Of a stretch of DNA of 64,000 nt, positions 42,049 through 43,695 are shown piece after piece. The notes under the pieces are model-generated. The model had not been told where the DNA came from. It did no database searches and saw only the letters and a program-made list of their open reading frames with translations. A program made the translations under genes and the position numbers. Source of the stretch: a virus (lineage: Duplodnaviria; Caudoviricetes); the IMG/VR virus record IMGVR_UViG_3300031564_000194, positions 3,114 to 67,113 of that record; one strand, 5' to 3'. Each line of letters begins with the position of its first letter. Positions within the stretch are counted from its first letter, which is position 1.

Positions 42049-42111
42049 GGTGGTGTTTGAGTACGGGTTCATCTTTGGGAGATAAATCCCCGTGCTCGTT
42101 CTGTTCCCCGT
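42049..42111 (+). ncRNA. Y-RNA-like repeat 1 (terminal stem only, no tRNA module)
   Basis: CGGTGGTG 5' motif and CTGTTCCCCG 3' motif as in the other repeats; GAGTACGGG/CCCGTGCTC stem; small ATCT/AGAT hairpin. Confidence 0.6.
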
Positions 42112-42119
42112 TAAACGAA

Positions 42120-42183
42120 TTGTTGTAATCCCATCGAAGGGATCATGCCTTGGACGCGGGTTCGACTCCCGCCACCTCCACCA
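42120..42183 (+). ncRNA. ssrA: two-piece tmRNA, acceptor piece (T-arm + acceptor 3' strand + CCA)
   Basis: GGACGCGGGTTCGACTCCCGCCACCTCC-A-CCA; helix-2 strands TGTTGT and TCATGCCTTG pair with the coding piece. Confidence 0.9.
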
Positions 42184-42287
42184 GACAGCAACTCGGCAGG
42201 TCAGTTAAGCGTTGTGCACGACGCTGAACGCTGTCAGAGACTTCACCCGAAGTATCCGCGATACAAAAGCGAGGGTTGCTGCCTCGT

Positions 42288-42540
42288 GGGGGTGTAACGG
42301 TCTCGACAGGGTAGGTGAACGGAGAAGGCAACAGGATAGGCGACTGACCTAATCAGCGCAAAACAAGCAAACGCCAATGACGACGTTTTCGCTGTTCGCG
42401 CCGCTGCCTAATAAGCAGTAGCTGAACCGAGTATCCACCCCCGGCCAGGGCCGTACCTTGGCTGCTTGGGAACAGAAAGGGGTGGAAGTATTCGTTGGTA
42501 AAGCCTTGCCCAGAGCGCAACCCGGAGGCAACCGGGACTT
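42288..42540 (+). ncRNA. ssrA: two-piece tmRNA, coding piece (tag ANDDVFAVRAAA at 42373-42411); 3' end approximate
   Basis: GGGGGTG pairs with CACCTCC giving the G3:U70 Ala identity pair; GGTCTCGACAGGG D-loop analogue; pk1 TAGG/CCTA + CTGA/TCAG; tag ORF ending TAA TAA. Confidence 0.9.
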
Positions 42541-42559
42541 TCAACCAAAGGAGATTTTC

Positions 42560-42709
42560 ATGGCCGCAAACAAGAAGCATCGCAATCTGACTGCAGCGAC
42601 AAGCTGGCAAGCTGGTTACACCGAACCTTCCAAGCCTGCATCCAAGAAGGGTGGCAAGTATCCCGGCCATCAGCAGTTCGATTCCAAGCTGCGCTCCAAG
42701 CGTAAGTAA
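42560..42709 (+). CDS. basic 49-aa protein (MAANKKHRNL...DSKLRSKRK)
   Basis: SD AAGGAG, ATG 42560. Confidence 0.6.
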   Translation: MAANKKHRNLTAATSWQAGYTEPSKPASKKGGKYPGHQQFDSKLRSKRK

Positions 42710-42717
42710 CGAAATTC

Positions 42718-42850
42718 GTGGTGGCGTAGGTAAGGGTTACTTCATCCCAAGCAGCGGGTCGCAGGTTCGAGTCCTGCCATTGGTCTAGGCCGATGTAGCT
42801 CAGTTGGCAGAGCAGCCGCCATCGAACACCCTAACCGACTTGTTCCCCAC
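42718..42850 (+). ncRNA. yrlA: YrlA-like Y RNA, repeat 2 (permuted tRNA module)
   Basis: GTGGTGGCG..GTTACTTC / TTGTTCCCCAC ends; T-arm GCAGG-TTCGAGT-CCTGC precedes a closed acceptor stem and the D-arm GCTC-AGTTGGCA-GAGC. Confidence 0.85.
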
Positions 42851-42862
42851 ATCAACTTTTTC

Positions 42863-42995
42863 GCGGTGGTGATAGATACAGATACTTCTCCATTTCAAGG
42901 AGGTAACGCAGGTTCGAATCCTGCTGGCTCACCAAGTGAGTCATCGTCTAGTGGCCCAGGACACCTAAAAAGCACTGTGTCGATCTGTTCCCCGC
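42863..42995 (+). ncRNA. yrlA: YrlA-like Y RNA, repeat 3 (permuted tRNA-Glu(UUC)-like module)
   Basis: TCTCC-ATTTCAA-GGAGG, TAAC, GCAGG-TTCGAAT-CCTGC, TGGCTCA/TGAGTCA, GTCT-AGTGGCCCA-GGAC; flanked by GCGGTGGTG / CTGTTCCCCGC. Confidence 0.85.
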
Positions 42996-43020
42996 AACAA
43001 CATCAAACCGGAGTCCGTCA

Positions 43021-43236
43021 ATGAAATTGCTTACCATCGAACAACTCAAGAAGCTGCGTATCGAACGTGGTGAAAATCAAGGTGTCTTCTGGGGCCGCGT
43101 GCGTGTTACCCAAAGCGGATCATCCCGCTACGAATCGGGTCGCAAGCCTAATGAGCATGTGTTGATCACTGCCACCCTGGTCTACGGCACAGAAGCCCAA
43201 AAGAAAGCTGTCCTGAAAGAACTCCAGGCAGCGTAA
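43021..43236 (+). CDS. XRE-family helix-turn-helix regulator, 71 aa
   Basis: LKKLRIERGENQGVFWGRVRVTQSGSSRYESGR, resembling the betaproteobacterial NQxxFWxRxGVTQSGGSRYESGR family. Confidence 0.8.
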   Translation: MKLLTIEQLKKLRIERGENQGVFWGRVRVTQSGSSRYESGRKPNEHVLITATLVYGTEAQKKAVLKELQAA

Positions 43237-43243
43237 CGATTTT

Positions 43244-43371
43244 GCGGTGGTGATAGGTACAGATACTTCGCCTTTTAAGCGAGAGGTCGCTGGTTCGAAT
43301 CCAGCCAGAGTGTCGACGCTGTAGCTCAGTTGGATAGAGCACTTACGTGCCTGTACCGATCTGTTCCCCGC
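43244..43371 (+). ncRNA. yrlA: YrlA-like Y RNA, repeat 4 (permuted tRNA-Lys(UUU)-like module)
   Basis: TTCGC-CTTTTAA-GCGAG, AGGTC, GCTGG-TTCGAAT-CCAGC, short closed acceptor, GCTC-AGTTGGATA-GAGC; same flanks; GGTACAG/CTGTACC stem. Confidence 0.85.
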
Positions 43372-43376
43372 ACCTA

Positions 43377-43500
43377 ACGTCGTCACCGATGGACGTAAGC
43401 AATCGGCACCCGATACCAGTCAATCCTGCGAGGACTGCATGCTTCCGTATGAGCAGAAAGACTACAACGGTATCTCCGCACGATGGGTAAGCGGAAAGAT
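43377..43500 (+). ncRNA. unidentified structured RNA (H-type pseudoknot + three-way junction + hairpin)
   Basis: ACGTC/GACGT with CCGAT/ATCGG; GATACC/GGTATC enclosing TCCT/AGGA and TGCT/AGCA; TCCGC/GCGGA. Confidence 0.45.
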
Positions 43501-43503
43501 TTC

Positions 43504-43624
43504 GCAGTGGCGTAGATGACAGTTACTTCGGATAGAGCGTCAGTCGAAAGACTGAAGGTCGTTGGTTCAAACCCAACCGGCTGAAATGCCGTAGCTCAGT
43601 TTTACTGCATCGTCCGTTCCCTGC
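43504..43624 (+). ncRNA. yrlA: YrlA-like Y RNA, repeat 5 (tRNA module opened in the D-loop)
   Basis: GGATAGAGC, TCAGTC-GAAA-GACTGA, AGGTC, GTTGG-TTCAAAC-CCAAC, CGGC/GCCG, TA-GCTCAG; flanks GCAGTGGCG..GTTACTTC / CCGTTCCCTGC. Confidence 0.8.
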
Positions 43625-43634
43625 ACTTAGTTTT

Positions 43635-43695
43635 AAGTGGTGTCAGACATGGTTACTTCCTGCGACGAAACTACACCATGTCAACTTGTTCCCTT
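43635..43695 (+). ncRNA. Y-RNA-like repeat 6 (terminal stem only), abutting the rsr ribosome-binding site
   Basis: AAGTGGTG..GTTACTTC / TTGTTCCCTT; GACATGGT/ACCATGTC stem. Confidence 0.7.

Follow-up and report, generated by a model that had tools for sequence, protein, structure and literature searches.

Six small units lying upstream of a Ro60 (Rsr) gene in a soil phage are very probably phage Y RNA genes of the YrlA/YrlB kind for that adjacent Ro60, as judged from sequence comparison and predicted folds. The phage was recovered as the single-contig IMG/VR record IMGVR_UViG_3300031564_000194 (67,113 bp), of which a 64 kb stretch, termed the window here, was analysed. The record is classed as a provirus by IMG/VR with a CheckV completeness of 100%, and DNA of the phage is present in a series of soil metagenomes. 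The units (U1–U6, Table 1) lie 12–1663 nucleotides (nt) upstream of the TROVE gene at 43709–45166 and, like Ro60, on the + strand. By their predicted structures four of them (U2–U5) are YrlA-type and two (U1 and U6) are short, and the array as a whole consists of six RNAs of at least four types. The system has been known since Chen et al. 2014, and the array is not a new kind of system.

All six units share the same build: the outer stem is followed by one bulged U and a GG/CC pair step, and an internal loop separates these from the inner helix. A preliminary description of this DNA had reported that each unit begins with RGTGGYG and ends with YGTTCCCY, which was confirmed for all six by a direct check of the sequence, and that five units contain TACTTC; these are U2–U6, the corresponding position in U1 being occupied by TTCATC. 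The outer pairs described there (CGG/CCG, GTGG/CCAC, GCGG/CCGC twice, GCAG/CTGC and AAG/CTT) are present, the last being extendable to UUAAG/CUUAA. Each unit also has the single unpaired U and an inner helix that differs in sequence but is paired, with one bulged A in the inner helix of U5. When the units were folded using RNAfold the terminal stem with its bulged U was part of the minimum free energy structure in five units and of the centroid in U2, and U1, U3, U4 and U5 folded better than shuffled sequences, with z values of -2.1 to -3.2.

The shared part of the units, referred to here as the handle, was examined in 42 fetched viral loci (labelled L001 etc.) that encode Ro60 relatives at 38–63% identity, and nearly all of these loci carry it. 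An alignment of 37 short units (A1, MAFFT-only), comprising 35 units from other phages together with U1 and U6, was used to build a covariance model, R1, and U2–U5 were outside this training set. The RNAalifold consensus of A1 consisted of the outer stem, the GG/CC step and the inner helix, with compensatory changes in 12 of the 14 pairs. In an alignment of 111 units from 38 phage loci 93.4% of the cells were paired compared to 60.4% in shuffles, double changes were found in all 14 pairs, and the covariation score was 0.825 against at most 0.136 with slid partners. The column pairs of highest mutual information were exactly the proposed pairs. The 111-unit alignment is model-fitted, and the MAFFT-only A1 gives the same result. 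The covariation of the terminal stem, first proposed from the six units of the window, holds across the family.

In the consensus handle a covarying outer stem of 4–9 base pairs (bp) is followed by the bulged U and the GG/CC step, and an asymmetric internal loop links these to a covarying inner helix of approximately 8 bp. The 5' strand runs from the outer stem through U (110 of 111 units), GG, Y, G (111 of 111), W, A and G into the inner helix, and is followed by U-W-C-W-U-C, in which U, C and U are invariant in the 111 units. The 3' strand consists of an A-rich stretch, the inner helix, C-G-Y-U-U-G-U-U, CC and the outer stem. Within the internal loop, which is formed by YG-WAG on the 5' side and CG-YUUGUU on the 3' side, there is a G16–C156 pair and an A15/G157 apposition: the G of WAG is paired with the C of CG, as G-C in 66 units and U-A in 10, and the preceding A stands opposite a G in 73 units. 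Watson-Crick pairing of the GGYG pyrimidine (Y) with the G/A of UUGUU was considered and rejected, because the positions gave no covariation and C faces A in 21 units.

The preliminary description had suggested that a covariance model be built and searched with. R1 matched only the six units on both strands of the 64 kb (the match to U5, which covers both handle strands, was obtained with filters off), and gave no further match on the remainder of the genome. Over 39 sources it returned 111 units at E < 1e-3, all of them on the Ro60 strand and most less than 1 kb upstream of it. Two of the related loci, L024 and L038, carry 7–8 units, so that the six of the window are not exceptional. A further 23 units were found beside Ro60 relatives in 11 contigs of bacteria or metagenome-assembled genomes belonging to several phyla. 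R1 gave no match on the loci of crAss001 and the actinophage Gordonia phage VanLee, indicating that the handle belongs to one Ro60 clade. The similarity between the units could in principle be due to chance, or the units could belong to a repeat that is selfish or without function. Nothing except how short the motifs are speaks for this reading, which is already refuted, and is left with next to no probability, by the lack of further matches on either strand of the 64 kb, by the massive covariation over 111 units and by the counterparts that every unit has in distant phages.

The protein encoded directly downstream of the array is a Ro60 orthologue, with matches to Pfam TROVE (E 1.8e-17), to PHROG 850 'RNA-binding protein' (E 3.4e-31) and to the Ro60 structures 9KOP/9L5Y of Thermus phage phiLo (E 1.6e-11). 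It shares 41% identity with a TROVE+vWA protein encoded by Xylella phage Usme. When the twelve genes around the array were compared across 58 loci only Ro60 recurred. As the loci had been chosen by their Ro60, a reverse test by motif alone was run, in which a 16-nt motif of the 5' handle (GTGGCGTAG-N7-10-TTACTTC) was scanned over IMG/VR, giving 79 new loci. A Ro60 homologue was present in 53 of these and was on the same strand in every one, with the motif upstream of Ro60 in 43 and just downstream in 10; the median distance over all 53 was 237 nt. R1 recognised no real handle in 23 of the 26 loci that lack Ro60, and these 23 are chance matches to the motif; the remaining three have true handles next to which the available sequence stops. 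Handle and Ro60 are practically inseparable, and on this ground the handle is called the Ro60-binding module. From this linkage we infer that the handle binds Ro60 and that the Ro60 at 43709–45166 is the protein partner of the six RNAs.

The long units carry, in addition to the handle, what are predicted to be circularly permuted tRNA-like domains, the hallmark of YrlA. In U2, U3 and U4 a T arm with a GGUUCGA loop is followed by a closed acceptor-like hairpin and then by a D arm. In U2 the handle leads into UUACUUC and a short stem-loop, after which come the T arm, a closed acceptor-like hairpin of 7 bp and the D arm. U3 and U4 also have a normal variable loop and a 5-bp stem bearing a loop of 7 nt before the T arm, and the predicted fold of each resembles a tRNA that is nearly complete but opened between the D arm and the anticodon stem. 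In U3 the domain is made up of an anticodon-like arm whose 7-nt loop is AUUUCAA, a T arm, an acceptor hairpin of 7–8 bp that is closed, and a D arm of the tRNA-Glu type. In U4 the anticodon-like arm has the loop CUUUUAA and the variable loop reads AGGUC, and the T arm, closed acceptor hairpin and D arm follow. U5 has a GAAA tetraloop in place of the anticodon loop and an acceptor hairpin of 4 bp, and folds better than shuffles with a z of -2.11. No contiguous tRNA was found anywhere in the window by ARAGORN, and the partial matches to Rfam tRNA (RF00005) scored 22.5–23.8 bits against a gathering score of 29. After in-silico re-permutation, a brute-force test that is indicative only, ARAGORN called U3 as tRNA-Glu(UUC) and U4 as tRNA-Lys(UUU) in most variants, and U5 as a tRNA with a 4-nt loop. 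An alignment of 30 long units from many phages shows covariation in the T stem and conservation of both the T and the D arm, and YU-NNN-RA anticodon-like loops with varied triplets are present in about half of the long units. Such loops are common in the long units of L001, L002, L004, L009, L012, L013, L023, L031, L032, L041, L042 and L044, and the triplets observed in relatives (GUU, CUC, GAU, AUU, GCU, UCU, UGU and UGA) are not just those of Glu and Lys.

These features raise the possibility that the units are primarily tRNA-derived and act without Ro60, the handle being only a clamp or processing signal that joins the permuted halves. The canonical 7-nt anticodon-like loops of U3 and U4 with their ARAGORN assignments, the YU-NNN-RA loops of varied triplet in the long units of the family, and the presence of a permuted transfer-messenger RNA (tmRNA) in the same array are all consistent with this, as are the 7-bp acceptor stems of U2 and U3, a feature that enables the RNase P cut of Mycobacterium smegmatis YrlA (PMC4201824). 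However the full handle occurs with no tRNA part in U1, in U6 and in 40-odd short units of other phages, and stable GNRA or UUCG tetraloops frequently cap the acceptor hairpins of the family, pointing to selection for a closed stem. A clamp would also explain neither the invariant unpaired nucleotides nor the near-perfect linkage to Ro60 on the same strand. A role of this kind in place of Ro60 binding is considered quite unlikely, although it can hold in addition to it.

The two short units differ from the others in lacking the tRNA-like domain, which makes them YrlB-like short Y RNAs rather than YrlA. U1 has an outer stem AACGG/CCGUU, the bulged U, GG/CC and an inner helix of 9–10 bp, topped by a conserved apical hairpin of the GUUCAUCUUUGGGAGAUAAAUCC type; its minimum free energy and centroid structures are the same, with a fold z of -3.24. 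It is 85% identical to L006:3718-3776 and 81% to L004:3491-3553, and short units of the U1 type tend to open the arrays. The apical hairpin of these units (GUUCAUCUU-NGG-AGAUAAAUCC; 42068–42090 in the window) is kept across distant phages, as in L004:3489-3555, L006:3714-3780, L008:3817-3881 and L017:3913-3977, which implies a specific partner of its own.

The preliminary description had called the units tandem and had proposed a Ro-binding handle with interchangeable cargo. The six units are clustered, but they are not duplicates of one another. Within the window they have little in common beyond the handle and the T arm, and each is closer to its counterpart in another phage than to its neighbours (U2 is 78% identical to L006:3433-3535, and U4 77% identical over its whole length to L001:4006-4133 of Xylella phage Usme), and they are neither recent repeats nor tandem duplications. 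In addition the array is interrupted by a tmRNA gene and two open reading frames (ORFs). The modular part of the proposal stands, since a Ro60-binding module joined to an effector module is the accepted picture of Y RNAs and fits both the covariation of the handle and its linkage to Ro60, but 'interchangeable' is an overstatement because the unit types are old, conserved paralogue classes. When four soil-metagenome DNA runs were checked for compensatory variants and for gain or loss of units they contained only identical phage contigs of low depth, and the unrelated tRNA-like fragments that pile up on the T and D arms in the same runs were uninformative.

Table 1. Predicted RNA units and genes of the array and its surroundings; coordinates are those of the window.
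Feature	Coordinates	Strand	Description and supporting match
Primase	36650-38998	+	Replication/early block
U1	42046-42112	+	Short Y RNA without tRNA-like domain; R1 61.4 bits
tmRNA gene, circularly permuted (two-piece)	42121-42502	+	Rfam RF04321 130.3 bits (gathering 47)
Small basic ORF, 49 aa	42560-42709	+	Between tmRNA and U2; ORF list
U2	42717-42851	+	YrlA-type; R1 40.4 bits; Rfam YrlA 38.1 bits over T/acceptor/D core
U3	42862-42996	+	YrlA-type; R1 34.3 bits; fold z -3.06
ORF, 71 aa, RsaL-like helix-turn-helix	43021-43236	+	Pfam PF22495 HTH_92, E 5.3e-15
U4	43243-43372	+	YrlA-type; R1 40.2 bits; Rfam YrlA 42.1 bits full length
U5	43503-43625	+	Y RNA with tRNA-like domain opened in D loop; R1 18.0 bits, E 3e-4
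U6	43633-43697	+	Short, cargo-less; AU-rich outer stem UUAAG/CUUAA; R1 61.0 bits
Ro60 (Rsr) orthologue, 485 aa	43709-45166	+	TROVE + vWA domains; directly downstream of array
PD-(D/E)XK exonuclease	46068-46769	+	Replication/early block
SNF2 helicase	46830-48248	+	Replication/early block
DNA polymerase	48170-50230	+	Replication/early block

YrlA-like RNAs adjoin Rsr in 254 bacteria and 22 phages, sometimes with several per locus, and YrlA is characterised by the Rsr motif GNCGAAN0-1G, by conservation of YUAY and by a tRNA-like domain permuted into the order T/acceptor/D (PMC4201824). The structure of this domain has been solved (PDB 6CU1; bioRxiv 10.1101/312249). The array resembles the YrlA and YrlB systems of Salmonella Typhimurium and M. 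smegmatis (Chen et al. 2013, 2014; Rfam RF02553) in that the genes are next to Ro60, at less than 4 kb from it, on the same strand and in that each RNA combines a Ro-binding stem made from both of its ends with an effector module. The 5' strand of the handle, GG-Y-G-W-A-G, is a close variant of GNCGAAN0-1G, and UUAC (U2, U5 and U6) or AUAC (U3 and U4) matches the published YUAY; U1 has UUCA. The order of T arm, closed acceptor hairpin and D arm is shared by U2, U3 and U4, and U5 has the same parts with the D loop opened. The short units are analogous to YrlB as partner RNAs without a full tRNA domain. There are also differences: the array has six RNAs where the known systems have one or two, U5 is permuted in the D loop unlike YrlA, and no rtcBA repair operon is found beside the array. 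Its handle also conserves the 3' strand (CG-YUUGUUCC), the bulged U and GG/CC, whereas for Salmonella and M. smegmatis only the 5' strand has been reported to be recognisable.

Several observations weigh against assigning the units to the Y RNAs. The exact GNCGAAN0-1G motif is present in none of the six, which have one-mismatch or longer variants instead: GGCGUAG, with one mismatch, in U2 and U5, GGUGAUAG in U3 and U4, GGUGUCAG in U6 and GGUGUUUGAG in U1. YrlA is described as a molecule that 'lacks the anticodon loop', yet U3 and U4 have a complete anticodon-like arm and a variable loop. The scores with the Rfam YrlA model are below the gathering threshold of 69 bits, at 42.1 for U4, 38.1 for U2 and 15.4 for U5. 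Finally, the first set of loci was picked by Ro60, so that the reverse motif scan alone escapes this bias. Sibling units of the R1 family, such as those in L017, L023 and L041, have the exact GGCGAAG, and in the mismatch column of the family U is found in 64 units and A in 40. The Rfam model gives 42.3 bits for a unit of Caulobacter phage CcrColossus (not necessarily the one named in the literature) and 40–45 bits for the units of bacterial contigs, and these equally low scores indicate that the threshold reflects a narrow seed and not a different kind of RNA.

Among phages, CcrColossus has been named as a Y RNA phage (Chen et al. 2014), and like the window it has a phage Ro60 with upstream units of the same handle, R1 locating 5–7 of them ahead of its TROVE gene. 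In vitro the Ro60 of phage phiLo has been shown to bind host PNPase as well as two Y RNA-like RNAs of the phage (PMC12135203). These RNAs, Yrl1 and Yrl2, are likewise encoded directly upstream of a phage-encoded Ro60. They differ from the array in being without a tRNA-like domain and in being defined by a CGAA bulge (PMC12135203), and R1 gives a single weak match in phiLo, which is downstream of the Ro60 gene. Cultured 43-kb phages, Xylella phage Usme (LR743523) and its Xanthomonas relatives, carry an unannotated array of five units belonging to this family (L001:3527-4136) upstream of a TROVE+vWA gene annotated 'hypothetical', and in Xanthomonas phage 10KY502B one unit has been annotated as tRNA-Thr.

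The metazoan Y RNAs (RF00019) and Yrn1 of Deinococcus radiodurans are comparable in having a terminal helix of both ends in which a bulged nucleotide marks the Ro60 site, with bases conserved on both strands and a variable distal module that binds other factors. The metazoan RNAs differ in having no tRNA-like domain and in the identity of the bulged base and the loop sequences, and the Y_RNA (RF00019) model gave no match at E <= 10 between 41900 and 43800. The permuted tRNA genes of Cyanidioschyzon merolae and the two-piece tmRNAs are similar in that the 3' tRNA half precedes the 5' half. In the array, in contrast, a loop closes the acceptor stem, a conserved, predicted protein-binding handle takes the place of a splice or processing motif at the open ends, and there is no sign that the units mature into a decoding tRNA. 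In the papers covered, among which were neither the review PMC10870794 (2020) nor the supplementary tables to Chen et al. 2014, there was no description of the conserved 3' strand of the handle with its bulged U, of the invariant UWCWUC in cargo-less units, or of complete anticodon-like arms, a unit permuted in the D loop and a tmRNA within an array.

The tmRNA gene within the array was the only match there at Rfam gathering thresholds. It also matches RF01850 (94.1 bits, gathering 84), and ARAGORN placed a permuted tmRNA at 42091–42502. The acceptor piece (42121–42183) begins 8 nt past the end of U1 and has CCA at its end, the coding piece starts at about 42288, and the tag frame at 42373–42414 encodes ANDDVFAVRAAA followed by two stops. 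The tmRNA is of the betaproteobacterial two-piece type, which bears on the host only as a hint. An Rfam scan of 25 related Ro60 loci gave no tmRNA, and none was seen in the other arrays examined, unlike the array of the window. One of the related loci that carries Ro60 and Y units (L013:1093-1368, IMGVR_UViG_3300020583_000158) contains a compact match of 276 nt to bacterial RNase P RNA class A (126.8 bits, gathering 100), which heads an array of >25 tRNA genes. The 49-aa ORF had no match in Pfam, PHROGs or NCBIfam and is absent from all related loci, and the 71-aa helix-turn-helix ORF was not found in related loci either. The spacer between U4 and U5 (43373–43503) folded no better than shuffles (z +0.42) and had no Rfam match. 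The array sits in a + strand block of replication and early genes (Table 1).

U6 ends 1 nt ahead of the GGAG Shine-Dalgarno sequence of Ro60 and 11 nt ahead of its start codon. In most related loci the last unit ends about 14–100 nt before Ro60, often with a UUAAG/CUUAA or UUAG/CUAA stem, and in many (L002, L003, L004, L006, L023, L024, L027 and L028) a last, cargo-less unit ends 14–20 nt before the Ro60 start. No sigma-70 promoter or terminator was predicted inside the array, and the predictions gave nothing above shuffle expectation. Both the position of these last units and the lack of predicted internal promoters or terminators are in line with an alternative in which the handles act in cis within the mRNA, for example as operators, stabilisers or processing sites, to control Ro60 and its neighbours and are not free RNA genes. 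Against this, five of the six units are not beside a start codon, the unit classes are kept as whole folded domains with tRNA-like tertiary-structure nucleotides, and the homologous YrlA, YrlB, Yrl1 and Yrl2 are stable free RNAs bound by Ro60 (PMC4201824, PMC12135203). As an account of the whole array this alternative is very improbable. An added autoregulatory role for U6 alone is plausible, and it is possible that the last unit exerts feedback control of Ro60 translation.

If the units are Y RNA genes, their mode of action can be outlined by analogy with the characterised systems. Since no internal promoter or terminator was predicted and U6 abuts the ribosome-binding site of Ro60, the units and Ro60 are probably on one long transcript, which would be early or middle and from which host RNases would release the units. 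In M. smegmatis, YrlA is cleaved by RNase P and tailed with CCA (PMC4201824), and the 7-bp acceptor stems of U2 and U3 suggest that these units may be processed likewise. Ro60 would then bind the handle, in the way that the bulged terminal helix is bound by Ro60/Rsr in other Y RNAs. In the resulting set of ribonucleoproteins (RNPs) the RNA would gate the cavity of Ro60, and the tRNA-like part may recruit a tRNA-binding factor or a nuclease such as PNPase, comparable to the published RYPER complex. A further, rather doubtful possibility is that the array is a panel of Ro60-tethered tRNA mimics of differing 'anticodon' identity (Glu-UUC and Lys-UUU here, others in relatives) which, together with the phage tmRNA, senses, soaks up or helps to repair the damage done by host defences that target tRNA, such as anticodon nucleases, or steers a host exonuclease such as PNPase onto cleaved tRNAs.

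The locus gives a clean and compact example of a phage Y RNA array within a 67-kb soil phage, and the comparative set provides a covariation-backed consensus of the predicted Ro60-binding handle for its clade, including the invariant unpaired bases. R1 also finds unannotated units in cultured phages, namely CcrColossus and the Usme group of Xylella and Xanthomonas, the latter being a convenient experimental system. The comparison of the units with those of other phages is evidence that the unit types are old paralogues and not recent repeats. Should the array indeed act as a panel of tRNA mimics, the Ro60/Y RNPs of phages would gain a defined role in counter-defence.

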